Assembly (NCBI GenBank): GCA_016207605.1
Contig: JACQPJ010000023.1
Coordinates: 1 to 63,601, forward strand
Source: Elusimicrobiota bacterium
Lineage (GTDB): Bacteria > Elusimicrobiota > Elusimicrobia > UBA1565 > UBA9628
Direction of reading: 5' to 3'
DNA: 63,601 bases
Shown here: in pieces, positions 16,958-49,007 of the stretch
How positions within the stretch are numbered: the first letter of the stretch is position 1
Layout of the letters: every line of letters starts with the position of its first letter
Made by a program: the position numbers and the translations under genes
Notes under the pieces: model-generated
What the model saw: the letters and a program-made list of their open reading frames with translations, nothing else
Told to the model about the DNA's origin: nothing
Database searches by the model: none

Positions 16958-19069
16958 TCAGTCTGCGCCGCGCGCCAGATGCGGAGAAGGGCCCAAAGTC
17001 CTATCCGCGCTTGGGACTAAAGTCCTATTTTTGGCGAGGCGCAGGACGATGCGCCTGTAGGCCGATAGGGCGAGGGCGTCCAATTCCTTGGCCGGGTCCT
17101 GGAGGACCGCTTCGATCTCCGCCAGCGCCGCAGCCGCGATGTCCTCGACGCCGTAGGCGTCGACCGCGAGGATGTTTTCGAGTTGGGAGCGGACATCCTC
17201 GTACAGCCCCCTGGAACGATCGGGGCGGCTGAGCCGCGCCAGAGCCGCCAGGAGCCGGGCGCGCACGTCGGCGGCCGGCCACGGCCTCGCGAGGCCGTCC
17301 TCCCGGGCGCGCCGGACGGCCGCGCGCAGCTCAGGGTCCGCCCTCAGCGCCGCGGCGAATTCCTCGCGGGCCTCCAGGCCGAGCGCGCCTTGGAGGAACT
17401 CCCTCAGCGCCGCGCGTCGAGGAGGCGCCGCGTCCGCGGGCCCGATGAGCGGGACATCGCCGTAAGAATCGTCGCGCGCGGACATGCCCTGCCTGTCGTT
17501 TCGTTCGCGCAATTTTTCCAGCTCTTGGGGGATGAACCATCTCTGGTTGTTGTAGCCCATGACGGCCGCCCCGACCATGAAGGCCGCGGCCGCCAGCGCG
17601 GCGATGGATCGTCCATAGGTTTCCCAGGAGATGGCGACAGGCGACAGGAGGACCGCCGCCGCGGCCATGGCCGCCAGCGCGGCCAGGAGGCCGACCGCCG
17701 CGGATAGGAACAGCCCTTTGGGGGAGAGCGAACCTTCTTCCCGCGCGATGCTTTGGGAAAGCCGGCGCAGTTCGAACTCGGAGCGGCGCACGCTCGGGCC
17801 GGGGTAGTACTCGCCGTAGTCGAAGATTTGGAACGTCTCGTCTCGTCCGCCCAGCGCGCGATAAGCGCCTCGGAGCCCTTGGAGCAGGGCCGTCTCGGAG
17901 TCCCATTGAGGCGTGGGGCTGTGCGTCCGCGTGTATCCTGCGAGGAAGCGCGCGGGCAGGACGTAGTACCGGCCGTTTTGCTCTGCGACCTCCAGGTTGA
18001 CCGGCTTGCCGTCCACGATGCTCGCGGAGAGTCCGACGACGGTCCCATCTCTGTCTTTCTTGAGGAAGGCGGAGAAGTTCGGGCGGTGGCTCGGGGGCGG
18101 CGCCGTGCGTCCGGCAAGAGGCTGGGTCTGGTCGTAAAAGGCCTGCAACAGGGCGAGGAGAACTTCCTCCGCGTCCGCGGCATCATGCAGCCTGATCTCG
18201 AAGGCGTCTTGGTAGCGGTGCCTGCCGTCCCGAGGGAAGGGAGTCTCCGCCTTTTTCGTGCGGATCACGTCGAAGTGCGTCGTCCCGGACTTGGCGGCCG
18301 GCCGCAGGCGCCGCGCGTCCCGGACGTCCGGGACGGCGCGCGCGCCGGTTTCACCCCGCGCGTCCGCCGGGAACAGCTCCTCGGCGGATCGGCCGGAGCG
18401 GACGAAGGCGAAAAAGCGCCGCGCCGTTTCCGCGCCGGCCCTGTCGGCGACGGCCTCGGCGACCTCCTCCTTGGCGCGCGCGATCTCCTCGAACAACTCG
18501 CCCGCGTCCTGGGCCGGCAGGAGCCCCGGATAGAGCCGCGCGACGCGCGCGATTTCCTCTCCCAGCCCGTTCAATTGCTCCGCGTCGGCCTGCATCGCGC
18601 TGGGACTGTTCGTGCGATCCAATGAGCGGACGGCTTTTCGGGCCAGGACTTGCGCGGCCCGGCGGATGCCGTTCTTCCAGGCGGCGACTTCCCCCCGCAC
18701 ATCACGGACGGCTTGTTTGACCAGCGCTTTGCGCCGCTCCTGGGCCGCCTCGTTCTGCGCGCGCGCCGCCCTCTTCAAGGGCAAGCCGAACCACGCGCCG
18801 TGCTCCAGGGCCAGGTGGAACGCGACGGCGTCCCGCACGTCCGGCGGCACGAACCAGCGGAACTCGGGGAAATGCTCCCCCAGCCCGACGCCGTTGACCA
18901 GGCCCAGGGCGTCCTGAGGAAGGCCGACGCCGTAGTACGGGAGATGGGAGCGCTCATAGATCACGGAGAACTCTGGGAGCTCGGCCTTGACCGCGGGGTC
19001 GGCGGAGGCTCGCGCCGCCGCCGCGACGGCCAACGCCAGGCCGAGCGCGCGCCGCCGCGGAATCGGCAT
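16958..19069 (-). CDS. large hypothetical protein with signal peptide and two late TM helices
   Basis: 703 aa; RRRALGLALAVAAAARASA leader; hydrophobic pair after residue ~460; GGAG RBS. Confidence 0.7.
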   Translation of the reverse strand: MPIPRRRALGLALAVAAAARASADPAVKAELPEFSVIYERSHLPYYGVGLPQDALGLVNGVGLGEHFPEFRWFVPPDVRDAVAFHLALEHGAWFGLPLKRAARAQNEAAQERRKALVKQAVRDVRGEVAAWKNGIRRAAQVLARKAVRSLDRTNSPSAMQADAEQLNGLGEEIARVARLYPGLLPAQDAGELFEEIARAKEEVAEAVADRAGAETARRFFAFVRSGRSAEELFPADARGETGARAVPDVRDARRLRPAAKSGTTHFDVIRTKKAETPFPRDGRHRYQDAFEIRLHDAADAEEVLLALLQAFYDQTQPLAGRTAPPPSHRPNFSAFLKKDRDGTVVGLSASIVDGKPVNLEVAEQNGRYYVLPARFLAGYTRTHSPTPQWDSETALLQGLRGAYRALGGRDETFQIFDYGEYYPGPSVRRSEFELRRLSQSIAREEGSLSPKGLFLSAAVGLLAALAAMAAAAVLLSPVAISWETYGRSIAALAAAAFMVGAAVMGYNNQRWFIPQELEKLRERNDRQGMSARDDSYGDVPLIGPADAAPPRRAALREFLQGALGLEAREEFAAALRADPELRAAVRRAREDGLARPWPAADVRARLLAALARLSRPDRSRGLYEDVRSQLENILAVDAYGVEDIAAAALAEIEAVLQDPAKELDALALSAYRRIVLRLAKNRTLVPSADRTLGPSPHLARGAD
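16988..17027. promoter_or_regulatory. paired 16-bp motif (AGGGCCCAAAGTCCTA / TGGGACTAAAGTCCTA), 24-bp period
   Basis: Same motif pairs at 23148-23210, 26084-26123 and 33845-33884; lies upstream of the subtilisin gene. Confidence 0.65.
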
Positions 19070-19070
19070 A

Positions 19071-21107
19071 CTATCTCCCCAGCCGGCCGGCCATGACTTT
19101 CGCGGGCCTGCCCGAGGTCCCGCGGCCGCCGCGCGCCGCCGACGCGGGGCCGGAGACGACGCCGCGCCGGGCTTTCTCGCCGTTTTCCCACTTGCGGTAG
19201 CTCGGGCCCAGGCGGAACTCCAGGGCTCGGTCGATGGCGCGCGTCTGCTCGTCGTAGGAGCCTTTGGCGACGTAGTTCCACACGACGACCCATTTCATGT
19301 CGCTCGCGAAGAAGAAAAAGAGGCGGTGGCCGTACGGGCGCAGCTCCCAGACCATCCCATGGCGGAGGTCCTTGGCCGTGCCCTCCAGCGTGTTGTTCTT
19401 GATCGTGGCGCCGTGGCGCGCCAGCGCGCGCAGCCCCTCGATCGTCTCGCGATAAGCCGCCGCGTCCTCGGTCGAGAGCTTTTTGAGGACGCCATCCACC
19501 TCGGCGGAGAGGTACACGTCCCACTGGGCGTCGTCCGGCTGGCCTTGCCATCGCTCCAGCAAGGGCCGGGGAGGCGACGGCGGGACGGGCGGCGGCGCCG
19601 GCGGCCGGGCGAGGGCGCGGCGGATCTTGTAGCGCTTCTCGCCCGCCTCGCCGCGTTCCTCCGTGATCGCGCCGGCGGCCTGCAGGGCGATGAACGCCTC
19701 CAGCCGCTGGTTGGGATCGAGGTCGGGATGGTCGAGGTCGAGCGCCTCCTCCCCGGTGAAGTCGGCGTTTCCAAACGCATTGCGCAAGAGGCCCGCGTAG
19801 GCGTTCATGTCCCGCGGGTCCGCCCAGGACCGCGAGCCGATGAAGTAGCGGTCGCCGTCGCCCTTGCGCTCGATGAGCTTGAGGGCGAGCAGGTCCTTGA
19901 TGATGCGCATGCACGTGCGCCTGTTCAGCTGGAGGGTCTGACCCTCCACGATCATGTGCGCCAGGCTGTCTTCCCTGTATTTGCCTCCCGTCAGCCACAG
20001 AGCGAACGCCTGGATTTTGTCGCGCACGTAGAGCTTAAGCGGCGGCACCAGATGCCACTTGGTCGCCGTTTTTCTCCGCGCCGCGCGCGCGATGCCGTCG
20101 CCCTGGAGGGACTCCAAGGCCTGCACGACGTTCGCCTCGTCGAGTCCGACCTTTGACTGTATTTCAGCGGCCGTGAGAAGCCGGACAGCGTCGAGCGCGC
20201 CGCGGACGGCTTCCCGCGCCTCCTCCCGGTCTTGCAGGGCGCCGGGCGGCGCCGCTTCGGCGGCGGGGACGCCGCCGCGGCTTGGCGGAGCCGGGAGAGC
20301 GGCCGGTTGGGGCGGAGCTTGATAGGAGGCTTTGCCGTTCCTGGGATCGTACTTGATCAACCTGTGCTCGGCCATGTCCCTCATGAGCGCCCTCGGATAT
20401 TGCACGCCGTAAGCCTTGGCGAGCGGGAGGACGTCGCTTAAGTGCAGTTTCGTTCTCTTGTCTGCGCGCAAGCGGGTGATGAGGGCGGCGCGAAATCCCA
20501 CCGGGTCCGGGTCGGGGCTGACGCCGATCATCGGGGCGGCAAGAGACGCCGCCGCGGGAAGCTCAACGTCGTCGGCGGTTTTGTGCGGCGGCGCTTCGCC
20601 GAAGACGCTACGGGCATTCCGCACGAGGTCCTTCAATTCTTGGGGCCGGATCTGTTCATCTGCGGTCACGGATTTTGAGATGGGAACGACGGCGTGCCGA
20701 CTGAGCGGCAGGGCGTTCGGCATCCTCAAGGGCCTGCGGGAGGAGCGGTCTCCCGACCGCGCGAACGCGCGGTCCCGCGGCGTCCCCCCCGCGGCCGCGC
20801 GCGCCGCGTAAGCGGCTGGGGCGGTCGTCCTCGGGGGCGCGGCGGCGGACCGCGGGAGCGGCGGCACGCTGATCGTCGTGAACGCGTCCCGCGCCGAGGC
20901 AGGCCAGGCGCCGAGAGTCAAATCCGGAGGGGCGGCCTCTTGAATGGGGAGGAAGTCGAAAAGCGGAGCCCGCGCGGCGCTTTCGGGGATGGCTTTAACG
21001 GCGCTGTTGCCCTGCGCCGCCGCGGAGGCGGGCAGGAGCGCGACAAGGGCCGCGAGCAGCAGGCGCGCGGCGCGGACGGCCGGGATCGGCGTCGGCGGGG
21101 CGGTCAC
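19071..21107 (-). CDS. signal-peptide protein with winged-helix-like repeats and a C-terminal RelE/HigB (Gp49-like) domain
   Basis: GTG start overlaps the upstream TGA; RAARLLLAALVALLPASAAAQ leader; C-terminal KDLRHGMVWELRPYGHRLFFFF…VVVWNYVAKG…AIDRA. Confidence 0.65.
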   Translation of the reverse strand: MTAPPTPIPAVRAARLLLAALVALLPASAAAQGNSAVKAIPESAARAPLFDFLPIQEAAPPDLTLGAWPASARDAFTTISVPPLPRSAAAPPRTTAPAAYAARAAAGGTPRDRAFARSGDRSSRRPLRMPNALPLSRHAVVPISKSVTADEQIRPQELKDLVRNARSVFGEAPPHKTADDVELPAAASLAAPMIGVSPDPDPVGFRAALITRLRADKRTKLHLSDVLPLAKAYGVQYPRALMRDMAEHRLIKYDPRNGKASYQAPPQPAALPAPPSRGGVPAAEAAPPGALQDREEAREAVRGALDAVRLLTAAEIQSKVGLDEANVVQALESLQGDGIARAARRKTATKWHLVPPLKLYVRDKIQAFALWLTGGKYREDSLAHMIVEGQTLQLNRRTCMRIIKDLLALKLIERKGDGDRYFIGSRSWADPRDMNAYAGLLRNAFGNADFTGEEALDLDHPDLDPNQRLEAFIALQAAGAITEERGEAGEKRYKIRRALARPPAPPPVPPSPPRPLLERWQGQPDDAQWDVYLSAEVDGVLKKLSTEDAAAYRETIEGLRALARHGATIKNNTLEGTAKDLRHGMVWELRPYGHRLFFFFASDMKWVVVWNYVAKGSYDEQTRAIDRALEFRLGPSYRKWENGEKARRGVVSGPASAARGGRGTSGRPAKVMAGRLGR

Positions 21108-23086
21108 GGGGAGCTGTCGGACCTCGCCGGGTCGGCGGTCTCCAAGAATTCTTCCAGCACGCCGAGAGCGGCGAAGACGTCGGGACGCGGGACGTCGTCC
21201 CACCCGCTGATCCGCGCGCGGTACGCGCGGACGGCCTGGAGGGCCGCGTCTTGGAAGCGGGGCCGCCGCTCGGCGTTGATCCAGCCGCGATCCAGGGAGT
21301 AGGCGGGCCGCTCGGCGTAGTCCGCCCTCGCGAATTGCGCGCGCTCCCTCGGCGTGCCCAACTGCTCGACGTTGAAGCGCTCCTGTTTGCGCACCTGGTC
21401 GGCGAAGGCGATCAGGAGGTTCCTGTAAATCCCATCGAATTCCCAGGCTTGCGCGGGTGCCGCGGCCGCGCGGGCCTTCGAGAAGCGGAGGACCGACCCC
21501 GCCAGCGGCTGGATCAGCGTCCCGCCGTCGTCCGCGCTCGAGGAGGCGTTCGCGTCAATCAGGCGCGTGGCCTCGCGGATTTGTTGACCCAGGGCACGCG
21601 GCTGGTCCGGAGGCTTGGAATAAAGATAGGAACCGCCGTTCTCATCGAGCCGCGCCAGGCGGCCCGCGGCGATCAGGCGCGCGACGTCGCTCGAATTCGG
21701 GCTGTCGTCCAGGCTCGCGTCCTTGAGGCGAGCCCGTTCGTGGACCGTGCCGGCGGCCCCCAAGGCGTCGGCGCGGGATTTAAGCTCCGCCGGCAGCGCC
21801 GTTCCAGGCTCCAACGTCCGCTCGCGCTCATTGAGTATCGCTTGATAGTCAAGGAAACGCTTGAGCACGTCCAGGCCGCGATGGGAGCTGCCGTCGCGTC
21901 GGGCCCCGTCCATCGCGGTCAGGAGCAAGCCCGCGTCGGCTAAAGGCAGGGCTTGGCGCGGCCTGCCGTCGTTGTAGAGGAAGCCGGCTTGAACGTCGGC
22001 CAAATGCCTGAGCTGCGCGGCCGCGTCGGCCGCGGCCTGGCCGCGCAGTCTGCTGCGCTCGCGGCGGTGAGCTTGCGCCGCCAGGCGGTGGCCCAGCTTG
22101 AGGGAGGCGCGGCCGCGCAGGAAGGCGAGCGCGTCCGTCACCGGGACCTCCGCCGCCTCGCCGCGCTGCCTGGCCGCGGCCAGCGCCTCGTCGAAGACGG
22201 CCGCGGCGTCCATCAGCTCCCTCAGATCGCCGCGATTGAACCGGCGCACCGCCTCGGCGACTTTCGGATCCTGACGCGCGGCGTCAACGGCCTGCATATC
22301 CTGGCCGGGACCGAGGACCGCGAGCTCGCCCCGCTCCCGAGCCTTTTCCATGATCCTTTTGGTTTCCGGCCCGCTCCAGCCTAGTCGGCGGTGTGCTCTC
22401 AGGACGATCTCGCTCGTGATGACATCCCCGCCGAAAATGTGCTCCTGCTGCGCGAGGCTGTCTATCAAGGTCTCGAAGCTCGGATCCTCCGACAGTCGGG
22501 GTTCCGGCAGTCTGTCCTTGCGGGCTGTCCGCGCGGCAGGTTTGACCAGACCCGGGGCCTGCGGGCGGCCGGTCGCGCCGCTGCCCTCGCTCACGGTCTG
22601 CGCCGTTTGGCCGCCTGTGGGGCCGCCGGCAAAAGGCTCCCCGGCCTCCGCGCTGAGGCGGTCCGCGTCGCCGCGGGAGTCGGCCGCGGCCCTCGTCAGG
22701 GCCCCGGCTTGCCGCGCCATGCGGCGCGTCGTCTCGATCACGGCGGAGATTTCTCCCGGCGCGGCTCGCTGCCGCCGCCCCCGCCGCATCGAGGCTCCGA
22801 CCGCGGCGATCGCGGGCGTGAGGGCGGCCGGGGCCGGCAGGAACGTCGCGGCCGACATCACGGTTCCGGCGGTCAGCATCCAGTCGGCGGAGAAGGCTTC
22901 CGCCGCGCTCCCGACGTCGTAAAACGGCATGACGATGGGAAGGAGACTTTCCGCCGCCGAGGCGGGCTCGCTCGGTCTTAGGGCGTCGGAGAAGGCCCGG
23001 GCCTCGGGCCCGGAAAAAAGCGATAGGGACGCCGCCAGGACGAGGCGCGCGGCGCCGAGGGGCGGGATGGGGCGGCGGCAAGGCAT
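21104..23086 (-). CDS. large hypothetical protein with signal peptide
   Basis: ATG 23086 with GGAGG RBS and TATAAT at 23125-23120; AARLVLAASLSLFSGPEARA leader. Confidence 0.7.
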   Translation of the reverse strand: MPCRRPIPPLGAARLVLAASLSLFSGPEARAFSDALRPSEPASAAESLLPIVMPFYDVGSAAEAFSADWMLTAGTVMSAATFLPAPAALTPAIAAVGASMRRGRRQRAAPGEISAVIETTRRMARQAGALTRAAADSRGDADRLSAEAGEPFAGGPTGGQTAQTVSEGSGATGRPQAPGLVKPAARTARKDRLPEPRLSEDPSFETLIDSLAQQEHIFGGDVITSEIVLRAHRRLGWSGPETKRIMEKARERGELAVLGPGQDMQAVDAARQDPKVAEAVRRFNRGDLRELMDAAAVFDEALAAARQRGEAAEVPVTDALAFLRGRASLKLGHRLAAQAHRRERSRLRGQAAADAAAQLRHLADVQAGFLYNDGRPRQALPLADAGLLLTAMDGARRDGSSHRGLDVLKRFLDYQAILNERERTLEPGTALPAELKSRADALGAAGTVHERARLKDASLDDSPNSSDVARLIAAGRLARLDENGGSYLYSKPPDQPRALGQQIREATRLIDANASSSADDGGTLIQPLAGSVLRFSKARAAAAPAQAWEFDGIYRNLLIAFADQVRKQERFNVEQLGTPRERAQFARADYAERPAYSLDRGWINAERRPRFQDAALQAVRAYRARISGWDDVPRPDVFAALGVLEEFLETADPARSDSSP

Positions 23087-23147
23087 CAGGTTCCTCCAAA
23101 GGGTCCGGGCATTCCTTAGATTATAGGATGGAGTCGGCCCTGCTTCC

Positions 23148-23210
23148 TGGGTCTTTGGGCCCATGGCGCGGGGCTGTTTGGACCTACCGCGAAGTGGGCC
23201 GAAAGTCCTA
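23148..23210. promoter_or_regulatory. 16-bp motif cluster (23148-23163, weak copy 23171-23186, 23195-23210)
   Basis: TGGGTCTTTGGGCCCA … TGGGCCGAAAGTCCTA; nearest copy is 22 nt from the minus-strand TATAAT. Confidence 0.7.
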
Positions 23211-23224
23211 TATTAGCGCCCGTC

Positions 23225-24235
23225 ATGGCGATGTCTCCGGCGCTCGAGCTCGACTCCGCGTCGCGCGTGACCGCGGTCTACATCGGCCGGGTGGGCGACG
23301 TGATCACGGCGACGCCCTTCCTGCGCGCCCTGCGCCGGCGCCTGCCCAAGGCGCGGATTCGGCTGGTGGTGGGCTGGCGCAGCCGGGAGGTCCTGCCGCT
23401 CATCCCCTTCATCGACGCGTCGCTGATCCTGGGCAAGCCCTGGCGCCTGGACGCGCACCTGGCCCTGGCGGCGCGCCTGCTCTCCTCGCGCGAGGACCTG
23501 CTCGTGGACCTCAACTCCGTGTTCTCCAAGACCTCGACCTTGCTCGCGCGCGCGACGCCGGCTCGGGCCAAGCTGGCCTTCGAGAAGGGCAAGGGCCCCG
23601 CGGTGTTCACCCACGCGCTGGCCGCCCCGGCGGTCGAGGAGCACATGGCCGAGCGCTACGGGCGCCTGGCCGCAGCGCTCGGCGCGCCCTATGTCCCCGA
23701 GCTGGAGTTGAGCCTGCCGTCGGCCGACGCGGCGCAAGCCGAGCGCCTGCTGGAGCCCTTCGCGCTCGAAAGCGGCCGTTTTAAGATCGCGATCCATGCC
23801 GGGAACTTCGACCGCTTCTCCTTTCGCTGGCAGGAGGAGAAGTTCGCGGCGCTGGCCGATCGGCTCGCCGCGGATCCCGGGTTCCAGGTCTTTTTCTTGG
23901 CCGGCCCCGGCGAGAAAGAGAAGACCCGCGCGGTCGCGGCCGCGATGAAGCGGCCGGCGCCCGTGCTGCCGACCGCCCGTTTGGGCGTGACGGGCGGGAT
24001 GCTCCGGCGCATGGATCTCTTCGTCTGCAACGTCACCGGGACCACGCATCTGGCCGCCGCCTTGGGCGTGCCGACCTTCGCCTTCTACGCCGGCTACACG
24101 CAGACCGTCTGGCGTCCGCGCGGCGAGCGGCATGGCGGCACGCTTTGTCCGGAGTGGCAGACCTGCCGCGACACGACCGTGGACGAGGCCTGCGCCGCGC
24201 TCAAGGCGCACGTCGCCCGGCTGCGGGATATCTAA
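23225..24235 (+). CDS. glycosyltransferase family 9 (heptosyltransferase-like)
   Basis: GRVGDVITATPFLRALR, FVCNVTGTTHLAAALGVPT. Confidence 0.88.
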   Translation: MAMSPALELDSASRVTAVYIGRVGDVITATPFLRALRRRLPKARIRLVVGWRSREVLPLIPFIDASLILGKPWRLDAHLALAARLLSSREDLLVDLNSVFSKTSTLLARATPARAKLAFEKGKGPAVFTHALAAPAVEEHMAERYGRLAAALGAPYVPELELSLPSADAAQAERLLEPFALESGRFKIAIHAGNFDRFSFRWQEEKFAALADRLAADPGFQVFFLAGPGEKEKTRAVAAAMKRPAPVLPTARLGVTGGMLRRMDLFVCNVTGTTHLAAALGVPTFAFYAGYTQTVWRPRGERHGGTLCPEWQTCRDTTVDEACAALKAHVARLRDI

Positions 24236-25268: not shown

Positions 25269-25301
25269 TGGCGCGATTCTACCAGTTTGTATAATTGGGC
25301 C

Positions 25302-26075
25302 GTGAGGCTCGTCTCCCTGCGCACCGAGGCCGCGGTCACGACCATCACGCTGGAGCGCCCCGAGGCCCTCAACGCCCTCTCCGAGCCCCTGGCCCGCGGC
25401 TTCGCCGCGGCCGTCGCCCGGGCGCGGCGGGAGGCGTCCAAGGTCGTCGTCGTCCAGGGCGCGGGCCGCGCCTTCTGCGCGGGCGGCGACCTGGCCTTCA
25501 TCGCGGCCAACCGCCGGCGGGCGGCCGCGGACCTGGCGCCCCGGATGCGGCGCTTCTACGGCAGCTTCCTGTCCGTGCGCGAACTGCCCCAGGTCACCAT
25601 CGCCAAGGTCCAGGGCGCGGCCGTGGGCGCGGGGCTGTGCCTGGCCCTGGCCTGCGACCTGCGCGCGGTCGCGCCGGAGGCGCGGCTGGGCTTCAACTTC
25701 GTGCGCCTGGGCTTGAACCCGGGCATGGCCGCCTGGCCCCTGGCCCGCGCCGTCCTGGGCGAGGCGCGGGCGCGCGAGCTCCTGTTCACGGGCCGGTTTT
25801 TCTCGGGGCGCGACCTGCTGGCCTGGGGCGGGGCGAGCGCCTCCGGCCCCGCGGGCCCGCGGCTGGACGCGGCCTGCGCGCGGCTGGCCCGTTCGGCCGC
25901 CGCGGGCTCGGGCGCGGCCCTGCGCGCGCTGAAGGCCGAGACGCGCCTGCGCGAGGATCTGGCTCCTTTCCTGGACTTCGAGTCGCGCGGCCAGGCGCGC
26001 GCCTTCCTCTCCCCCGACCTCGCCGAGGGCCTGGCGGCCGCGCGCGAACGCAGGGCCCCGCGCTTCGACGCCTGA
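25302..26075 (+). CDS. enoyl-CoA hydratase/isomerase family protein
   Basis: ITLERPEALNAL, AFCAGGDL, GAAVGAG..LALACDLR; GTG start 6 nt after TATAAT. Confidence 0.9.
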   Translation: MRLVSLRTEAAVTTITLERPEALNALSEPLARGFAAAVARARREASKVVVVQGAGRAFCAGGDLAFIAANRRRAAADLAPRMRRFYGSFLSVRELPQVTIAKVQGAAVGAGLCLALACDLRAVAPEARLGFNFVRLGLNPGMAAWPLARAVLGEARARELLFTGRFFSGRDLLAWGGASASGPAGPRLDAACARLARSAAAGSGAALRALKAETRLREDLAPFLDFESRGQARAFLSPDLAEGLAAARERRAPRFDA

Positions 26076-26083
26076 CCCGGAGC

Positions 26084-26123
26084 TGGGTCCAAAGTCCTAG
26101 GCCCTCCTGGGCCTTTGGGCCCT
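26084..26123. promoter_or_regulatory. paired 16-bp motif (TGGGTCCAAAGTCCTA / TGGGCCTTTGGGCCCT), 24-bp period
   Basis: 22 nt upstream of the TATTCT hexamer (26146) of an extended -10 (TGnTATTCT). Confidence 0.7.
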
Positions 26124-26158
26124 TACGAAGGCTTGGGCGGACTGTTATTCTATTATCC

Positions 26159-27739
26159 ATGCGTAAAAGGATGGCGGAGCCGATCGGCGGAGCGCTCTGG
26201 GCGGGCTTCCTCCTGCTCTGGTCGCCGGGCGCTTCCTTCGCGGACGGGCCGGTCGCCCTCGTGTCCGAGGCGCGCACGGACTCTCAACAGACGACGCCTC
26301 AGCCGGCGGAGCAGGTCGAGTTTCCCGCCGCCAATTGTCCCAAAAAGAACACGAAAGAAGAGATGACCTCAGCCGTCGCCGACATCATCAAGGCCCCGAG
26401 GACCCCGGAGCACGGCGCCTTCAGCAAAGAGACGAATTACCTGAGCCCGCAAGGCTTCTTGGCTTTTTGCCTCGCCCAGGTCCAAAAGAATACCGATCCC
26501 GCCTCGGCGAAGAAAAATCTCTTTGCGATCATCAACGAGGCCCGGATCGAAGTGGGCCCGCACAAATATCAATCGAATCCCTATTCCTACATGAGCATGT
26601 CCGCCGCGCTGCGCAAGCAGCCGGGCCTCGACAAGTTCTGGGGAGAGGCCCTGCGCTGGGAAAGCAACAGGGACTATCTCGCATGGCAAAAGACGGGCCG
26701 CGTTCCCCCCAGACCCGGCCGGCCCGAGCCGATCGAGGGCTCGATCGAGGCGGCATGGCGCCGGCAGCACCCGGTCCTGGCGCGGGCCGCCAAGGCGCCG
26801 GAACCCAAAGCCGCCGCCGCGCCGTCGCGCGCGCCCGCGCGGCTCTCGTCCCGGGGCGGCGGTTACGCGCGCTCCCGATACGACGGCAGTGACGGCGGCA
26901 CGGCGGGACAAGGCGGCCAGGGAGGCGCGGCGGCGGAACCCGCTCCGCAGGTCTTCGCCTACGACGGGGGCAAGGGAGTTTTTTGGCGGACTCCGAAGGG
27001 GTGGACTGAAAAAAACCAGGGCGGCACGGCCCATTTTACCGCGAGCGGTGAGAGCTCGAAATACTACGAACTGCGCGATGAGAAAAGAAAACTTTCCGTC
27101 TGGCTTCCCAAGAAAGGAGGCGAATCCCTCTTTCGCCGCGACGGCGAGGCGAGTCCCCGCCCTCTTGGCTATAACGTCAAGCCCCGCGCTCCGCTGACGT
27201 ATTCCTTTGACAACCCCAGTTCTAAGGGGGTTTATAAAGAGAATGGGCCGGGAAGCTGGTCCGAGCAAGGAACCAACAAGACGAAGGGGGCAGGCTATAA
27301 GCTTGCCCTTAAGGAAGTCGGACGCGACAAGAGGGAGCTCCGGCTGGTCGATGCCGATGCCAATCTCTACAAGCTTCCTTTGGGGGGAGGGAAAGCCTAT
27401 TATAGGCCAAGGACAAAATGGGAGCCGCATAGGGTTATCGTCCCGCCGGCCGGCAAGAAGTCGCCCCTAAAACTGCGGCAAGTCGGCAGCGGAGTTTATG
27501 AGCCGAAAGCGCGCGGAGAAGCGAAATGGTGGAGGTGGACTTCAGCGGATGGGAAAGAATACGAAGACTACGCCGAAATTGAACGCAAGAATGGGACGAT
27601 CACGCTGCTGCTCGGGCCGACGGGCGATACATTCCGAGTTCCTTTGAAAGGCGGACAAAGCTATTTGCTTGGCGGGGGATTTTTGCAGGAGGACGGCAAA
27701 GTCTTTCCAAAGCGCGTCAAAGGCAGGTCCGGGCGGTAG
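26159..27739 (+). CDS. secreted hypothetical protein with three C-terminal beta-rich repeats
   Basis: Signal peptide GGALWAGFLLLWSPGASFA; Ala/Gly linker; three units of G(V)(F/Y)…W…(L/V)P..GG(E/K/Q)(S/A). Confidence 0.7.
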   Translation: MRKRMAEPIGGALWAGFLLLWSPGASFADGPVALVSEARTDSQQTTPQPAEQVEFPAANCPKKNTKEEMTSAVADIIKAPRTPEHGAFSKETNYLSPQGFLAFCLAQVQKNTDPASAKKNLFAIINEARIEVGPHKYQSNPYSYMSMSAALRKQPGLDKFWGEALRWESNRDYLAWQKTGRVPPRPGRPEPIEGSIEAAWRRQHPVLARAAKAPEPKAAAAPSRAPARLSSRGGGYARSRYDGSDGGTAGQGGQGGAAAEPAPQVFAYDGGKGVFWRTPKGWTEKNQGGTAHFTASGESSKYYELRDEKRKLSVWLPKKGGESLFRRDGEASPRPLGYNVKPRAPLTYSFDNPSSKGVYKENGPGSWSEQGTNKTKGAGYKLALKEVGRDKRELRLVDADANLYKLPLGGGKAYYRPRTKWEPHRVIVPPAGKKSPLKLRQVGSGVYEPKARGEAKWWRWTSADGKEYEDYAEIERKNGTITLLLGPTGDTFRVPLKGGQSYLLGGGFLQEDGKVFPKRVKGRSGR

Positions 27740-27872
27740 AAAGCGCCGTCTTCAGCGACGGGCGAAGACGCCGGCGCAGCGGCGGTACTTGTCGAGGGGC
27801 TCCCGGCGCGGGATCAGCCGGGACGGCGCGTCGAACTTCCGGCCCAAGAGGCGATAAGATATCATACCGGCA

Positions 27873-28220
27873 ATGGGAATTCGATTGTTGAAAAACTCCG
27901 TGGATTTGATCGAAGTCGCGTCATGGGCGAAGGATGAATTCGGCGACATGATCAAGGCCGCGGTGGACGTTGAGCGCGGGGTGCTGGCGATCGGGGGCGG
28001 CCTGCACTCGGATGAAGAAGCGATGCTCCTGGAGGACGGCTCCCGGCAGGAGCACGTCTGGGGCATCAACTTCTATCCGGAGAAGGCGGCGGAGGAGAGA
28101 GTGGAATTCGACTCCATGATCAACGTCCGGCCCGCGCAGGGCAACCGCTCGCGCGGGGTGGAGAAGCCGGAGATTCGGGCCCGCATTCTCCAGGTCGTGC
28201 GGGAGCGCATCCGGTCTTGA
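27873..28220 (+). CDS. DUF5674 family protein
   Basis: IKAAVDVERG..A.GG.LHSD.E..LLEDGS.QE.VWG.N…FDSMINVRP.QGNRSR. Confidence 0.85.
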   Translation: MGIRLLKNSVDLIEVASWAKDEFGDMIKAAVDVERGVLAIGGGLHSDEEAMLLEDGSRQEHVWGINFYPEKAAEERVEFDSMINVRPAQGNRSRGVEKPEIRARILQVVRERIRS

Positions 28221-28549
28221 GCATGGTCTTCCATCCTGATTTGGCCGCGGGCGGCTGGGCCCGGCTGTCCTTGATGGAGCAGCTGGGAAACGTGGGCAGC
28301 GAGGTGAGCCGGGCGGCGCGGTGGAAGGACAAGGACCCCAAGTTGTACGAGGGCGCGGTGCTTCGCGGTCTGGAGCTGATGGATTTCACTATCCGGGATG
28401 CGCGCTGGAAGGGACGCTTGAAGGAGCTGACGCGCGCGCGGGAGATGATGTGCGACGCCTGGCTCGGAGGGCGCGAGTACGGGACGACGTGGGAGGGCTT
28501 GGACCGCTACTTTTTTCATTTTGCCGTGGCCGCGAGACTGAGCAGATAA
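28217..28549 (+). CDS. helical hypothetical protein coupled to DUF5674
   Basis: W..LSLMEQLGNVGSEVSRA…KELTRARE; start overlaps the DUF5674 stop. Confidence 0.75.
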   Translation: MSMVFHPDLAAGGWARLSLMEQLGNVGSEVSRAARWKDKDPKLYEGAVLRGLELMDFTIRDARWKGRLKELTRAREMMCDAWLGGREYGTTWEGLDRYFFHFAVAARLSR

Positions 28550-28571
28550 GCCGAGCCCGAAGGGTCGAGAC

Positions 28572-29570
28572 CTAGCCGGCGAGCGCGAGGAGCCGGTAGG
28601 CGAGCGCCGCGGTGAGCGCGGCGCAGGGAATGGTCAGCACCCAGGCCCAGACGATGCGTCCCGCCACCCCCCAGCGCACCGCCGAGAGCCGCCGGGTCGA
28701 GCCGACCCCCACGATCGCGCCCGTGATCGTGTGCGTGGTGGAGACGGGGATGCCGGCCAGCGAGCAGATCATGATGGAGAGGCCCGCGCCGGCCTCGGCG
28801 CAGAAGCCTCCCACGGGTTTGAGCTTGGTCACCTTGTTGCCCATGGTGTGGACGATCTTCCAGCCGCCCATCAGCGTGCCCAGGGAGATGGCCAGGTGGC
28901 AGGAGAGCACGACCCAGTAGGGCACGTAGAACTTGTCGCCGAGCAGTCCGTTGGAGAAGAGCAGGACGGCGATGAGGCCCATGGTCTTTTGCGCGTCGTT
29001 GGCGCCGTGCGAGAGGCTGTAGAGGGCGGCCGAGAGCATCTGTCCGACGCGGAACGTCCGATCCACCTGGCTCGGGGAGCGGCGGCGGAACAGCCAGAAC
29101 ACGGCGATCATCAGGGAGAAGCCGAAGAGCAGGCCGATCAGGGGCGAGAGGAAGATGAAGGCGACCGTGATCTTGAGCTTGTGGTACTGGAGGCAGGCCG
29201 TTCCCGCCTTGGCCAGCCCCGCGCCGATCATCCCGCCGATCAGGGCGTGCGAGGAGGAGACCGGGATGCCGAACACGATCGTGATCCAGTCCCAAAGGCC
29301 GGCCCCGACCAGGGCGGCCGCGACCACGGCGGTGTCCACCACGCGCGGATCCACCAGGCCCTTGCCGATGGTGTCGGCGACGTGCACGCCGAAGCCGAAG
29401 GCGGCGACGAAATTGAAGAAGGCGGCCCAGACCACGGCCTGGCGCGGGGAGAGAACGCGCGTCGACACCACGGTCGCGATGGAGTTGGCGGCGTCGTGCA
29501 TGCCGTTGAGGAAGTCGAACACGTAGGCCAGCGCGACGACGGCCAGGACGGAGGCGGGGACGTGGCCCAC
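28572..29570 (-). CDS. pit: inorganic phosphate transporter, PiT family
   Basis: NGMHDAANSIAT, GIPVSSSHA, HGANDAQK, PVSTTH. Confidence 0.93.
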   Translation of the reverse strand: MGHVPASVLAVVALAYVFDFLNGMHDAANSIATVVSTRVLSPRQAVVWAAFFNFVAAFGFGVHVADTIGKGLVDPRVVDTAVVAAALVGAGLWDWITIVFGIPVSSSHALIGGMIGAGLAKAGTACLQYHKLKITVAFIFLSPLIGLLFGFSLMIAVFWLFRRRSPSQVDRTFRVGQMLSAALYSLSHGANDAQKTMGLIAVLLFSNGLLGDKFYVPYWVVLSCHLAISLGTLMGGWKIVHTMGNKVTKLKPVGGFCAEAGAGLSIMICSLAGIPVSTTHTITGAIVGVGSTRRLSAVRWGVAGRIVWAWVLTIPCAALTAALAYRLLALAG

Positions 29571-29574
29571 GGCG

Positions 29575-30201
29575 TCAGGCCTGCTTGACCAGGATCGTCT
29601 CCAGGGTGTGCGCGACGTCCTCGCACTTGTCGATGGCCTGCTCCACGGTTTCGTAGATCTCCTTCCACTTGATGACCTCGAGCGGGTCAGGCCGGCCTTG
29701 GAAGAGCTTGCCGAGCGCGGCGCCGTGGGCGTGGTCGCCGGCGTTCTCCAGCCGGTTGACCTCGATGCAATAGTCCATGACGCGCCGCGACCGCTCCGGA
29801 TGCCTGAGCTCGGCGACGGCCTTGCGCACGTTCTCGGTCGCCTGCCAGAGGATGTCGCAGAGCTGGATCAGCTCGTCGCTGGAGCGCTCGATGCGGAAGA
29901 GGAGCATGCGCTGGCCCACGGACTCGATCAGGTCCACGACGGAGTCGAGCTCGCTGGCCAGCTCCCGGATGTCCTCGCGGTCGAAGGGGGTGATGAAGGT
30001 GCGGTTGAGCCGGTCGTAGATCTCGTGGCAGGTGATGTCGGCCTCTTGCTCGATCTCGCGCAGGCGTTCGAAGGAGGCCGGCTCCAGGCTCCATTGGAGG
30101 GCCATCTCCTTGAAGGTCTTGGCCGCCTTCACGTTGTGGGCGGCCTGGGCGTCGAACAGTTCGAAGAATTTTTCTTCCGTGGGGATGAGTCTTAGAGCCA
30201 T
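29575..30201 (-). CDS. DUF47 (PhoU-like) PiT accessory protein
   Basis: EEKFFELF, TFITPFDREDI, EVIKWKEIYE..E.AID.CEDVA; start ATG 30201. Confidence 0.9.
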   Translation of the reverse strand: MALRLIPTEEKFFELFDAQAAHNVKAAKTFKEMALQWSLEPASFERLREIEQEADITCHEIYDRLNRTFITPFDREDIRELASELDSVVDLIESVGQRMLLFRIERSSDELIQLCDILWQATENVRKAVAELRHPERSRRVMDYCIEVNRLENAGDHAHGAALGKLFQGRPDPLEVIKWKEIYETVEQAIDKCEDVAHTLETILVKQA

Positions 30202-30333
30202 GGTCCCTCCTGCGGGCCGAGTCCGGCCCGCGGCGCACAGAAGATAGCGCTTCGGGGGTCCCCGGACAAGCCCCGCGCGCGCCGCCCAGCGCCGGCGTTG
30301 ACGCGGCGCGCGGCGAAATGGTCCCATGTCGCC

Positions 30334-31017
30334 GTGGCTCGGGAGAAAATCCTGGTCGTCGAGGACGACGCCAACATCGTCAAGCTTCTGCGCTACAACC
30401 TGGAAAAGGAGGGCTGGCGCGTCGTGGCCGCGGCCGACGGAGAGGCGGGGCTGGCCGCCCTGCGCCGGGAGCGCCCCGACCTCGTCGTCCTGGACGCCAT
30501 GCTTCCCAAGCTCGACGGCTTCGAGCTGCTCAAGCTCGCCCGCCGGGAGTTTCGCGCGCCCGTGCTCATGCTGACCGCGCGCAAGGAGGAGGTGGACCGC
30601 GTGCTCGGCCTGGAGCTGGGCGCCGACGACTACGTGACCAAGCCCTTCAGCGTGCGCGAGTTCTGCGCCCGCGTGAAGGCTCTTCTGCGCCGCGCCGCCG
30701 CGCCCGAGGCCGCCTCGGGCGGGGTCCTGCGCGCGGGCGGCGTCGAGCTCGACTACGAGCGCTACGAGGCGCGCGTGCGCGGCAAGGCCGTCGCGCTGAC
30801 GTCCAAGGAGTTCGAGTTCCTCAAGGTCCTCCTGCAGGCCGGGGGGCGGGTCCTCTCCCGGGACCGCCTGCTGGAGAAGGTCTGGGGCTACGACCGCGCC
30901 CTCGACCTGGACACGCGCACCGTGGATCAGCACGTCGCGCGCCTGCGCGACAAGCTCGGCCCGGAGAGCGGCTTGGTGGCGACCGTCAAGAACGTCGGCT
31001 ACCGGCTCAAGGCGTGA
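30334..31017 (+). CDS. phoB: OmpR/PhoB-family response regulator
   Basis: ILVVEDD, LVVLDAMLP, GADDYVTKPF, RTVDQHVARLR; context of pit and phoR. Confidence 0.85.
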   Translation: MAREKILVVEDDANIVKLLRYNLEKEGWRVVAAADGEAGLAALRRERPDLVVLDAMLPKLDGFELLKLARREFRAPVLMLTARKEEVDRVLGLELGADDYVTKPFSVREFCARVKALLRRAAAPEAASGGVLRAGGVELDYERYEARVRGKAVALTSKEFEFLKVLLQAGGRVLSRDRLLEKVWGYDRALDLDTRTVDQHVARLRDKLGPESGLVATVKNVGYRLKA

Positions 31018-32063
31018 GCCGGGACGGCGCCGGGCCCGCTCTCGCGGCGGCCGTTCTCGATCAGATGGCCGAGGCCGTGGTCGCGGTGGACGCGGAGGGC
31101 CGCGTGCTCGTCGCCAACCCCGCGCTGTTCCGCCTGCTCGGCGTCGATCCCGACTCCGCGCGCGGCCGGCGCTACCCCGAGATCCTGCGCCACGCCGGCG
31201 CCGTCGAGCTGCTGGGCGCGGTGCTGGCCGGGGGCCGGCCGCTGGCGCGGGAGGTGAGGCTCTTCGCCCCCGAGGAGCTGATCTTCGACGCGCATGCCGC
31301 TCCCCTCGCCGAGAAGGGGCGGCCGGCGGGCGCGGTCCTGGTCCTGCACGACATCACGCGCATGCGCCGCTTGGAGCAGATGCGCCGCGACTTCGTCGCC
31401 AACGTGAGCCACGAGCTGCGCACGCCGCTGGCCTCCATCAAGGGCTTCACCGAGACCCTGCTGGCGGGCGCGGTGAAGGACCGCGAGAACCGCGTCGGCT
31501 TCCTGCGCACCATCGAGGAGCAGGCCGACCGCCTCACCCAGCTCGTCGACGACCTCCTCGACCTCTCGGCCATCGAGTCCGGGCACCGCCCGCCCCGCCT
31601 GGCGCCGACGGACCTGGAGGCGGCCCTGGAGGAGGCCGCGGCGGCCTTCGCCCGCGCCGCGGCCGAGCGCGGCGTGCGCCTCGAGCGGCGCCCGTCGGAG
31701 GGCCTGCCCCCGGCGCTTGCGGACCGCGACCAGCTGCGGCAAGTGCTGGCCAACCTCCTCGACAACGCCATCAAGTACACCGAGCCCGGCGGGCGCGTCG
31801 AGCTGTCGGCCGAGCGCTGGGAGAGCGGGCTGCGCGTGTCCGTCCAGGACACCGGCGTGGGCATCCCGGAGGCCGGCCTGCCCCGGGTCTTCGAGCGCTT
31901 CTATCGCGCCGACAAGGCGCGCTCGCGGGAGGCCGGCGGTACCGGCCTGGGGCTGGCCATCGTCAAGCACCTGGTCGAGGCGCAGGGCGGAGCCGTCTCG
32001 GTCGAGAGCCGGCGCCCGGGCGGCTCGACGTTCCGCTTCACTTTGCCCGCGGCCGCGGCTTAA
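31014..32063 (+). CDS. phoR: PhoR-like histidine kinase (PAS-HisKA-HATPase, no membrane anchor)
   Basis: RRDFVANVSHELRTPL, NLLDNAIKY, DTGVGI, FERFYRADKARSR..GGTGLGLAIVKH; GTG start overlaps the regulator stop. Confidence 0.85.
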   Translation: MSRDGAGPALAAAVLDQMAEAVVAVDAEGRVLVANPALFRLLGVDPDSARGRRYPEILRHAGAVELLGAVLAGGRPLAREVRLFAPEELIFDAHAAPLAEKGRPAGAVLVLHDITRMRRLEQMRRDFVANVSHELRTPLASIKGFTETLLAGAVKDRENRVGFLRTIEEQADRLTQLVDDLLDLSAIESGHRPPRLAPTDLEAALEEAAAAFARAAAERGVRLERRPSEGLPPALADRDQLRQVLANLLDNAIKYTEPGGRVELSAERWESGLRVSVQDTGVGIPEAGLPRVFERFYRADKARSREAGGTGLGLAIVKHLVEAQGGAVSVESRRPGGSTFRFTLPAAAA

Positions 32064-32983
32064 GCCCCGCCCAGTTCGGGGGCGGCGTCCTGGTCCGGGG
32101 CGGCCGGCTTGACCCGCTCGATCTGGACGCGGCCCTGGGCGTCCACCTTGACGCCGTGATGGCGCTTGAGCTCGCCCAGAACTTCCTCGGGGGTGAAGCC
32201 CTGGGAGCCGGCGCGGTTCTTGATGTCGTTGAGCAGGGTCTTGAGCCGGGAGGGCACGTCCTTGATCCGCTGGAGCCGCGCGGCGTAGGTCCAGGCCACC
32301 TCGGCGAGGGTCTTGCCTCCGGCCTTGCGTGGCTCGTCGGAGGGCGGAGGAGGAGTCTCCGCCGCGGGCGCCGGCTCGGCCCGGGAGGGCCGGGCCCGTC
32401 CTCGTCCGCCGCCTCGCCGCGCGCCGGAGCGTCCGCCGCGCCGCGCGCCTCGGCGGGAGCGGGCCGCGGGAGCCTCGACGGCCTCCTCGAGCGCCTCCCG
32501 CGCCATCTGCTCGGCGTCGGGATGCGAGGTCCAGATCACGGCCACGCGTCCCAGGCGCTGGAGCTCCGCGGCCATGGCCGAGAGGGTGGCGTCGTTGGTG
32601 ACCATCAGGAAGGGGATGTGGTGCGGGAGCGTGGCGTGGAGCATGCCCGCGTGCAGGGACATCACGAAATCCGCGGCGTTGGCCCCGCCGCGCGGCGAGA
32701 CCACGGTCGCGCAGTGCGGCAGGGCGCCGAGCTTGCGCTCCAGCGTGCGCGGCATCTTGGCCCCCGGGCGCAGGAACACGCGCACCAGCGTGTGCCGCGT
32801 GACGGTCGCGGTCGGCGGAACGTGCGGGTCGTTGTCGCCGTCGATCAGCAGGACGGAGTCCACGGGGGCCGGCGGCGGGACGGAGGAGTCGGGGTTGCCG
32901 GCCGTCGCGGCGGCGATGTCCGCGGCGGAGAGCTCGGGGGCGGCGGGCGCCTCGCCCGCGGCTTCGGTTTCGTTGTCGTTCAT
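32060..32983 (-). CDS. NYN/PIN-like domain protein with Arg/Gly-rich linker
   Basis: LLIDGDN, NAADFVMS, VTNDATL acidic motifs; helical C-terminal domain. Confidence 0.6.
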   Translation of the reverse strand: MNDNETEAAGEAPAAPELSAADIAAATAGNPDSSVPPPAPVDSVLLIDGDNDPHVPPTATVTRHTLVRVFLRPGAKMPRTLERKLGALPHCATVVSPRGGANAADFVMSLHAGMLHATLPHHIPFLMVTNDATLSAMAAELQRLGRVAVIWTSHPDAEQMAREALEEAVEAPAARSRRGARRGGRSGARRGGGRGRARPSRAEPAPAAETPPPPSDEPRKAGGKTLAEVAWTYAARLQRIKDVPSRLKTLLNDIKNRAGSQGFTPEEVLGELKRHHGVKVDAQGRVQIERVKPAAPDQDAAPELGGA

Positions 32984-33002
32984 GATTGTCCCAGTATAGC
33001 AG

Positions 33003-33800
33003 TTAGCTCGGGGAGGCGCGGTCCTTGAGCGTCCCCAATAGCGCCGCGATGGGGTCGTAGAGGAAGCCGGGCAGCGCGGGCCACAGGAACCGGGCCGGGT
33101 AGGACAGCGGCCAGGGAAAATGGACGACGCGCCGGCGCGCGTCCAGGCCGCGCAGGACCGCGGCCGCCCCGTCCTCGGTCTCCATCAGGAAGGGCATCGC
33201 GCGGGGATCGCGCCGGTTCGTGATCTCGCTTTTGACGAAGCCCGGGCAGACCGCGCACACCGCCACGCCGGTCCCGCGCAGGTCCACGCGCGCCGACTCC
33301 AGGAGCGTCAGCAGGGCCGCCTTGCTCGCGCAGTAGGGCCCGGTCCGCGGCAGGCCGCGCAAGGCGGCCAGGCTGGAGATGCCCGCGATCAGGCCGGAGC
33401 CCCGCGCGGCCATCCCGGGGATGACGGCCTCCAGCCAGCGCGCCGCTCCCAGGACGTTGACGTCGAAGGTCCGGCGCACGGCCTCGGCGGAGAACGCGCG
33501 CGCGTTCATCGGCGCGCTGATCCCCGCGTTGAGCACCGCCCAGTCCAGCCCGCCCCAGGCGGCGGCGATCGCGGCGTAGTGAGCCCGGACCTCGCCGTCG
33601 TCCGTCACGGAGCCGGGCAGGGCCAGGGCCTCTCCCCCCGCCTCGCGCACCAGCTTGGCGGTTTCTTCCAGGCGCTCGGCCCGCCGTCCGGTCACGGCCA
33701 CGCGCCACCCCCGCCGCCCCATCAGGACGGCCAGGGCGCGCCCCAGCCCGGACGTCGCGCCCGTCACCACGGCGCGGATTGGCCCCGGCGCGTCGCTCAC
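33003..33800 (-). CDS. short-chain dehydrogenase/reductase
   Basis: TGATSGLG, LNAG, SSLA, YCASK, PGFVKS. Confidence 0.92.
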   Translation of the reverse strand: MSDAPGPIRAVVTGATSGLGRALAVLMGRRGWRVAVTGRRAERLEETAKLVREAGGEALALPGSVTDDGEVRAHYAAIAAAWGGLDWAVLNAGISAPMNARAFSAEAVRRTFDVNVLGAARWLEAVIPGMAARGSGLIAGISSLAALRGLPRTGPYCASKAALLTLLESARVDLRGTGVAVCAVCPGFVKSEITNRRDPRAMPFLMETEDGAAAVLRGLDARRRVVHFPWPLSYPARFLWPALPGFLYDPIAALLGTLKDRASPS

Positions 33801-33844
33801 GCCGCGATTCTAATGAACTCGGCCCCGCCTCGTCCACGTCGTCC

Positions 33845-33884
33845 CGGGCCTTTCGTCCTAGGACGTCCTAGGCCTAAAGACCCA
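33845..33884. promoter_or_regulatory. paired 16-bp motif (CGGGCCTTTCGTCCTA / TAGGCCTAAAGACCCA), 24-bp period
   Basis: 22 nt upstream of TATAAT (33907-33912). Confidence 0.7.
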
Positions 33885-33927
33885 GGCGGCGCCCCCGCCC
33901 CCGGCGTATAATCGCTACAATAGGAAC

Positions 33928-48866: not shown

Positions 48867-48870
48867 TCAT

Positions 48871-49000: not shown

Positions 49001-49007
49001 TAGGAGT

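Follow-up and report, generated by a model that had tools for sequence, protein, structure and literature searches.

Parts of one published study (PMC3177182) describe the DevR (DosR) regulon of Mycobacterium tuberculosis as one in which every promoter carries two to four tandem Dev boxes. In the same parts, the C-terminal domain of DevR is reported, as a dimer, to contact G4G5G6A7C8T9 in each palindrome half, G5 and C7 of the half-site are given as essential, and the boxes of tgs1 are centred at -42.5 and -63.5; a title that the study cites states that binding is lost with K182G in DevR or with C8G in the box (PMC3177182). Here we analyse a stretch of 63,601 nucleotides from an Elusimicrobiota bacterium (GenBank assembly GCA_016207605.1, contig JACQPJ010000023.1, positions 1 to 63,601 of the forward strand; "the window" below), in which four arrays of a 16-bp palindrome lie upstream of genes for putatively secreted proteins. 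A first reading, made from the letters alone and called here the sequence-only reading, had taken these arrays for an unrecognised regulon. That much has held on one side: in the literature searched, which excluded supplements, we found no description of the motif in Elusimicrobia and nothing on transcriptional regulation in Elusimicrobiota, and the regulon is new and apparently undescribed. On the other side, box and promoter architecture closely resemble those of DevR/DosR in the NarL family, and the mechanism is probably of the known NarL/DevR two-component kind.

Three other kinds of system also bear comparison. LiaR/VraR, NarL-family response regulators of cell-envelope stress, control envelope-related genes, and their kinases are of the HisKA_3 type. 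Class II CRP/FNR sites are dyad-symmetric and abut the -35 element at about -41.5 to -42.5, and CRP/FNR do not typically use tandem sites that follow each other immediately at 24 bp. LuxR-type quorum-sensing activators place a GerE-type helix-turn-helix on a palindrome, the lux box, centred near -42.5; unlike the system considered here, however, they lack a receiver domain and usually use a single 20-bp box, and the half-site sequence differs.

We hold it highly probable that the palindromes are tandem sites of a dimeric factor, set at an activator position and controlling a regulon of secreted-protein genes. The full statement, which adds that the activator is a response regulator with a receiver and a GerE domain (REC-GerE) encoded elsewhere in the genome, is our preferred account and is held with moderate confidence.

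Tandem palindromes upstream of promoters

The source genome (G000; 1,436,067 bases in 60 contigs, 68.6% G+C, rated 75% complete) contains the window as contig C9. The 16-mer has the dyad-symmetric consensus T-R-G-G-N-C-N-W-W-N-G-N-C-C-Y-A, with an A/T-rich centre, and occurs in either orientation. Within it, the count matrix shows the strongest conservation at the G and the C on either side of the variable base (145 of 167 and 141 of 167, respectively). The strict pattern TRGGNCNNNNGNCCYA has 36 matches, from which we derived a position weight matrix (PWM); its scores are to be read with the caveat that the matrix was refined iteratively on its own hits. It found 102 sites of at least 16 bits, compared with 7 in a copy of the genome drawn from a third-order Markov model, and 142 compared with 26 at a threshold of 14 bits. 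More than half of the hits of at least 13 bits (90 of 170) fall outside called genes, that is, in about 9% of the genome; the gene calls, like the signal-peptide score used below, come from crude in-house scripts.

The sites are strongly paired. Among the 49 pairs of hits no more than 120 bp apart, 19 are spaced by exactly 24 bp, 32 by 22–25 bp and 11 by 46–48 bp. A partner of at least 13 bits stands 22–25 bp to one side or the other of 57 of the 102 strong sites and, at the control offsets of 33–36 bp, of none; weaker partners are possible for the other 45. Clustering of the hits gave 36 arrays, comprising 31 doubles, 4 triples and 1 quadruple.

For each of these arrays we took the best -10-like hexamer at offsets of 8–40 nt on either side. 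A TAnnnT box lies exactly 22 nt from the proximal copy in 21 of the 36 and 23 nt from it in a further four, whereas random positions have one at offset 22 in 2.9% of cases (binomial p = 2.6e-23). The proximal copy is mostly oriented as TAGGNC....GNCCCT, and its final T and the five bases after it stand in the position of a -35 hexamer, 17 bp from the -10 box. This hexamer is weak in the GC-rich source genome and reads TTGTnn in an AT-richer relative, G090. In 17 of 32 pairs of an array and an open reading frame (ORF), the start codon follows the -10 box by only 5–9 nt (of the 32, four proved to be wrong ORF choices and were discarded, none of them among the 17), and we read these promoters as probable sources of leaderless mRNAs. 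If transcription starts 7 nt after the -10 hexamer, as the leaderless starts suggest, the proximal 16-mer would span about -50 to -35, with its centre at about -42.5, and the next copy would be centred near -66.5. The sequence-only reading had proposed dimeric sites just upstream of the -35 region, and the geometry agrees: the 16-mers are dyad-symmetric, stand in tandem and abut the -35 position at a rigid distance. The fixed 22-nt offset to the -10 box also speaks against random placement, and the 24-bp and 22-nt spacings, like the enrichment of signal peptides described below, extend from the window to the whole source genome.

The window contributes four arrays, listed here with their promoters and neighbouring genes (scores are those of the PWM):

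15577-16821, minus strand: Peptidase_S8 (subtilase; PF00082, 2.5e-57) with a signal-peptide-like N-terminus, the putative target of array 1
16988-17003 and 17012-17027, minus strand: array 1, with a 24-bp period (21.6 and 21.7 bits)
21104-23086, 19071-21107 and 16958-19069, minus strand: three consecutive large ORFs without a Pfam family, the first with a signal peptide
23125-23120, minus strand: -10 box TATAAT, 22 nt from array 2
23148-23163 and 23195-23210, minus strand: array 2, two copies 47 bp apart (24.5 and 22.1 bits) with a weak middle copy at about 23171
26084-26099 and 26108-26123, plus strand: array 3 (23.8 and 20.7 bits)
26146-26151, plus strand: -10 box TATTCT, 22 nt from array 3 and followed 7 nt later by the ATG at 26159
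26159-27739, plus strand: secreted orphan of 526 residues without a Pfam family, whose start may instead be 26171
33845-33860 and 33869-33884, plus strand: array 4 (17.4 and 25.6 bits)
33907-33912, plus strand: -10 box TATAAT, 22 nt from array 4
33928-36198, plus strand: secreted orphan of 756 residues without a Pfam family

All four arrays are where the sequence-only reading had placed them, and their coordinates agree with the sequence. The 22-nt offset that it had reported is exact for TATAAT at 23125-23120 (minus strand), for TATTCT at 26146, for TATAAT at 33907 and for the weak hexamer at 16965. Array 1 is the weakest case: it lies within the last codons of ORF 16958-19069, 166 nt from the subtilase start, and at offset 22 it has just a poor CAGACT (16965-16960). 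In array 2 the minus-strand promoter lies next to the copy at 23148, and the three ORFs from 21104-23086 to 16958-19069 probably form one operon driven by this array. The transcript from array 3 is possibly leaderless, to judge from the distance between box and start codon. At array 4 a second -10-like hexamer, TACAAT (33916-33921), lies 3 nt after the TATAAT and 6 nt before the ATG at 33928; this promoter may have two starts, one of them leaderless.

A divergent heptosyltransferase gene (23225-24235, Glyco_transf_9) starts only 14 nt beyond the end of array 2's distal 16-mer; it is the sole housekeeping-type gene touching an array and could be repressed rather than activated. The same question can be put to the arrays as a whole. 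That the array-bound factor activates transcription is suggested by position alone, and the sites might instead be operators of a repressor or a dual regulator; the copy at 23195-23210, so close to the heptosyltransferase start, is better suited to repression. The proximal copy, however, sits rigidly upstream of the -35 region and not over the -10 box or the start, and the -35 regions are weak and preceded by tandem upstream copies, features typical of activator-dependent promoters such as those of DevR. We therefore consider a repressor or dual regulator quite improbable.

Proteins encoded downstream of the arrays

The proteins encoded behind the arrays are of one kind. The signal-peptide rule, a crude score, was passed by 26 of 30 array-driven proteins but by only 322 of the 1272 genes of the genome (odds ratio 19, Fisher p = 5.6e-12); when every alternative start was allowed, the background rose to 464 of 1272 (p = 3e-8). 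Three of the four array-driven proteins that failed the rule look like signal peptides by eye. No Pfam family was found in 25 of the 29 target proteins scanned, and the other four are the Peptidase_S8 protein of the window (15577-16821), an SLT transglycosylase, a TPR protein and a FlgD_ig/CHU_C protein. The lineage-specific secretome that had been proposed from the four genes of the window is thus borne out across the genome. Its members show no paralogy among the 32 targets of the source genome and their operon mates, and no obvious C-terminal sorting signal in common.

They also evolve fast. Homologs of the 756-residue protein are present in 8 of 18 genomes of the same genus, at 34–39% identity, and none was found in 12 genomes of two sister families; for the 526-residue protein (26159-27739), no homolog at E<=1e-20 was found in 30 relatives. 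At six of seven loci encoding homologs of the 756-residue protein, a site of at least 17 bits is kept upstream, and here the promoter element outlasts the coding sequence. Structure prediction added little: the ESM Atlas gave no usable match for the 756-residue protein or for one of 660 residues, and AlphaFold2, run on the former with five homologs from the genus, gave a poor model (mean predicted local distance difference test score 58.5, predicted template-modelling score 0.32) in which residues 1-195 are disordered and the remainder is mostly helical.

Distribution of the motif and the candidate regulator

To follow the motif through the phylum, we searched for the paired pattern GGNCNWWNGNCC-N11-13-GGNCNWWNGNCC, which is strict, with the reversed pattern as a control. 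It matches 20 times in the source genome and is present in 40 of 41 relatives, the control giving approximately zero. Of 401 genomes of the phylum 189 contain it, and all 189 belong to one class. By family (f1 to f25 are our labels), the genomes with the paired motif are:

f1, 46/47; f2, 2/2; f3, 10/10
f4, 80/118; f5, 39/47; f8, 3/4
f11, 1/1; f13, 1/1; f14, 1/1
f6, 4/9; f9, 1/5; f7, 0/6; f10, 0/8; f12, 0/1
Other classes, none: f16, 0/89; f19, 0/11; f25, 0/10; and others

The motif is kept in genomes from 40% to 69% GC. G090, a gut-type member of family f4 (98% complete, 1.4 Mb, about 45–49% G+C in the stretches read), has the same layout in all 12 arrays examined, with the offset of 22 nt in 9 of them, and 11 of the 12 downstream ORFs look signal-peptide-like by eye. 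In f7, f6 and f10 genomes the 16-mer is at control level (0–4 matches compared with 0–6 in the control). The source genome, at 1.44 Mb, has 20 exact pairs, compared with 0–11 in genomes of the same genus with 2.4–4.1 Mb; this would mean a genome of much smaller size or a generous estimate of 75% completeness.

The window itself encodes no regulator, and none had been evident to the sequence-only reading; the best candidate lies on contig C15. The source genome has two GerE proteins, both of the REC-GerE type (PF00072 and PF00196) and sharing 70% identity: C15:43656-44330 and C40:10215-10916. The activator would be the first of these, possibly together with its paralog. Its closest solved relatives in phmmer searches are VraR (2.6e-38) and DevR (1e-32). 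The recognition helix of the GerE proteins reads K-T-[IV]-K-N-H and aligns with E-K-T-V-K-N-Y in DevR; it differs from K-T-V-K-T in VraR and S-T-V-K-V in NarL, and the orthologs read from f1, f4 and f5 show practically no change in this region.

The candidate broadly follows the motif. Orthologs of the C15 type, at E of about 1e-88 to 1e-120 and 68–87% identity, are found in 74/76 genomes of f1, 3/5 of f2, 16/16 of f3 and 78/78 of f4, and also in 20/20 of f5 (two of them weaker, at 5e-56 and 6e-68), in 7/7 of f8 and in f11, f13, f37 and f38. The families taken as lacking the motif have weaker homologs at best (f7, 1.8e-71; f6, 6.6e-61; f10, 2.9e-46; f12, 4e-31), and f9 has one in 1 of 12 genomes. 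The protein is also highly conserved: between the source genome and G090 it retains 67.6% identity and ranks with the ribosomal proteins among proteins of up to 450 residues, while only 487 of about 1,300 proteins of the source genome have a tblastn hit in G090 at all.

In the orthologs read from f1, f4 and f5, the regulator gene stands last in an operon, after genes for a dCache_1-HAMP-HisKA-HATPase kinase and a REC-HisKA-HATPase protein. The operon adjoins a Tad-like cluster (TadE, RcpC/CpaB, secretin, T2SSF) in both the source genome and G090, where the two regions are syntenic (G000:C15:19377-47841 and G090:C4:144-17952). In the source genome an array-driven gene for a FlgD_ig/CHU_C protein of 1156 residues (C15:19469-22939) abuts the first gene of the Tad-like cluster.

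The likeness to DevR/DosR extends from protein to DNA. The Elusimicrobia box has the skeleton G-G-N-C ... G-N-C-C at the same distances from the dyad as the Dev box, with an A/T centre, and the G and the C around the variable base, its best-conserved positions, correspond to those that the consulted parts of the DevR study describe as critical (PMC3177182). By the same source, the two systems share tandem boxes (two to four per array in the source genome) and a proximal box centred, by our numbering, at -42.5. The candidate shares with DevR the combination of REC and GerE domains and the K-T-[IV]-K-N recognition helix. Other features differ: a dCache_1-HAMP-HisKA kinase and a REC-kinase relay are present in place of DevS/DosT, and the targets are secreted orphans, a subtilase, and SLT and TPR proteins rather than dormancy genes. 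No autoregulatory site was found, and the regulator is a distant relative (phmmer E = 1e-32) from a different phylum. VraR is the best solved-structure match to the candidate (2.6e-38), but its helix has K-T-V-K-T where the candidate has K-T-V-K-N, and the candidate's kinase is of the dCache-HisKA type, unlike the kinases of LiaR/VraR regulators.

Several observations weigh against the REC-GerE protein as the binder. The 24-bp period of the Elusimicrobia boxes is out of helical phase, whereas the Dev boxes are in phase at 21 bp. There is no site of at least 13 bits before the regulator operon in G000, G090, G106, G280, G302 or G210, and therefore no autoregulatory link, and none of the arrays listed in five f4 genomes adjoins a GerE gene. 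The f7 homologs (52% identity, outside the kinase operon) share the K-T-V-K-N-H helix, yet the motif in f7 is at control level, so the helix alone does not predict the motif. The regulator was not found in G027, G391, G031 and G455, genomes that are 79–89% complete and come from families with the motif; three of them contain exact pairs all the same (7, 7 and 2 in G027, G391 and G031, respectively), and G455 was outside the motif search. Conversely, G100, G192, G155 and G262 have a strong ortholog and no exact pair, although the pair pattern is so strict that 38 of the 118 f4 genomes also score zero. Of the DevR residues taken as DNA contacts in the comparison of helices (K179, K182 and N183), the title cited in the DevR study supports only K182.

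These points leave room for another DNA-binding protein as the activator, with the GerE regulator merely co-conserved: the absence of a site at the regulator's own operon, the f7 helices without a motif and the three genomes with paired motifs but no detectable ortholog would all fit. Such a protein could be encoded by one of the conserved ORFs that lack a Pfam family, or be absent from the assembly of G000, which is incomplete. A Pfam census of the 241 G090 ORFs of 70–420 residues that have a homolog in the source genome returned, as DNA-binding regulators, just HrcA, LexA, an extracytoplasmic-function (ECF) sigma factor and the REC-GerE regulator. This census covers neither proteins longer than 420 or shorter than 70 residues, nor ORFs crossing the borders of 20-kb pieces, nor 16 kb of G090, nor the unassembled quarter of the source genome, and it left 10 conserved ORFs without a family, which again counts against our preferred candidate. 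LexA and HrcA were rejected as binders, no site being present upstream of lexA, recA, hrcA or groES in G090 (best score 6.9 bits); hallmark targets of the other regulators in the census thus lack the site, and box and architecture closely fit a DevR-type GerE domain. We regard a binder other than the REC-GerE protein as a doubtful but real possibility.

One further DNA-binding protein is tied to the arrays directly. In the array-driven operon C45:140-2074 (array at C45:140-179), a gene for a secreted TPR protein is followed by one for an FNR-like regulator of the CRP family (C45:1367-2074), which might be a class II activator that binds the arrays and regulates its own operon. It is the sole HTH_Crp_2 protein found in the source genome, has a cNMP-binding domain and carries an N-terminal C-x2-C-x5-C as in FNR. 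It is linked to an array, and a dyad-symmetric site near -42 that abuts the -35 region fits the class II position of FNR and CRP. In 43 of 58 relatives a site of at least 13 bits is kept 1.3–2.45 kb upstream, before the preceding TPR gene; for 6 of the 15 without one, the sequence available upstream is shorter than 1.5 kb. A further strong site follows the start of the FNR-like gene by 705–833 nt, just past its stop codon, in about 23 of the 58. The protein is nevertheless found, at E<=1e-35, in only 4 of the 118 f4 genomes, of which 80 have the paired motif, and three g27 genomes (6–13 exact pairs, 96–98% complete) keep their arrays with no cNMP_binding domain and only sub-threshold HTH_Crp_2 matches. 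Since gut-type genomes keep arrays where no CRP-family protein is found, the FNR-like regulator is better seen as a member of the regulon than as the binder; we rejected it on these phyletic grounds and think it very unlikely to be the activator.

Mobile elements near the arrays and a model of the regulon

Several arrays of the source genome lie directly beside the termini of two multi-copy elements found at contig ends, which raises the question of whether the arrays are themselves a mobile or structural repeat without a regulatory role, such as a repetitive extragenic palindrome (REP), a miniature inverted-repeat transposable element (MITE) or the ends of an insertion sequence (IS). We give this almost no credence. 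The flanks of the arrays differ from copy to copy, their position relative to the -10 box and the start codon is fixed, and no Rfam family overlaps them. In relatives the site is retained at orthologous promoters even though the coding sequence has drifted to 34–39% identity, and the motif persists across the whole GC range given above. The real REP-like repeat of the source genome is, moreover, a different sequence: a GC-rich hairpin with the core GCCGAGCCC-N3-6-GGGTCGAGGC, present in 55 copies that are typically intergenic (for example C30:1-110, C52:about 11300-11420 and C15:40470-40520), none of them in the window. The REP/MITE origin that the sequence-only reading had named as a danger to its case is thus contradicted.

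The first of the two elements is the 3' end of an IS66-family transposase gene (C36:1-146, C28:1-156, C45:63841-63890, the end of C48 and C26:about 2074-2123), with a full homolog at C45:62003-63433 (PF03050, PF13005). It stops 14–16 nt before the arrays at C36:147, C28:157 and C45:63906, and its last bases are GTAA (reverse complement), which we take to be the usual IS66 terminus. Insertion of this element may be targeted to the vicinity of arrays. The second element, seen only as the C-terminus of an ORF, occupies six contig ends (C45:1-139, C47:1-139, C46:1-95, C37:43807-43945, C56:41557-41672 and C34:10404-10518). Its final bases are ...GGGACAGCTC(TG), and they fall right at a 16-mer or within one; on C47, C37 and C34 only the far half of the 16-mer follows, as if the element had inserted into the palindrome.

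Between arrays 3 and 4 (28572-32063) lie genes for a PHO4 phosphate transporter, a PhoU_div protein and a PAS histidine kinase, none preceded by an array. A molybdenum-cofactor riboswitch (RF01055, 54.9 bits) is found at 48856-49005 and a tRNA gene at 42724-42795, both on the minus strand. Sequencing runs containing the window are labelled as groundwater metagenome.

In the model that we propose, the 16-mers would be the binding sites of a dimeric transcription activator, arranged in tandem arrays. The proximal dimer would cover about -50 to -35 and abut the weak -35 region, with further dimers 24 bp, or sometimes about 47 bp, upstream. Dimers bound to an array would recruit the housekeeping RNA polymerase to promoters with a TAnnnT -10 box, many of which seem to give leaderless mRNAs. 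The regulon would comprise about 30 or more fast-evolving, mostly family-less proteins exported by the Sec route, together with the FNR-like regulator. The REC-GerE protein of C15 would be fed by the dCache_1-HAMP histidine kinase and the REC-HisKA-HATPase relay of its own operon, so that an extracellular ligand might switch on the secretome.

A bolder version would join these elements into a class-wide secretome switch whose relay sits inside the Tad-like secretin locus and to whose arrays two IS families home. Under this version the secreted orphans would be cargo or accessories of the Tad-like machine, the regulator would be frozen at the level of ribosomal proteins because dozens of promoters depend on it, and the IS families may recognise either the palindrome or the bound regulator. 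We consider the combination unlikely; if it is true, the secretome switch would also be a site of frequent gene turnover.

Almost all Elusimicrobiota are uncultivated, and the motif offers a marker, readable from sequence, of one co-regulated gene set in hundreds of genomes. In each genome it marks about 30 family-less exported proteins as parts of one functional programme, and it names a regulator and a sensor that can be tested. The leaderless mRNAs suggested at many array promoters may improve the annotation of start codons in the lineage. What makes the combination unusual is that cis-element and regulator have hardly changed, whereas their targets diverge so quickly that homologs within the genus are 34–39% identical or missing. 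The regulon would thus be a useful model of a conserved switch that drives a rapidly changing surface or secreted repertoire.

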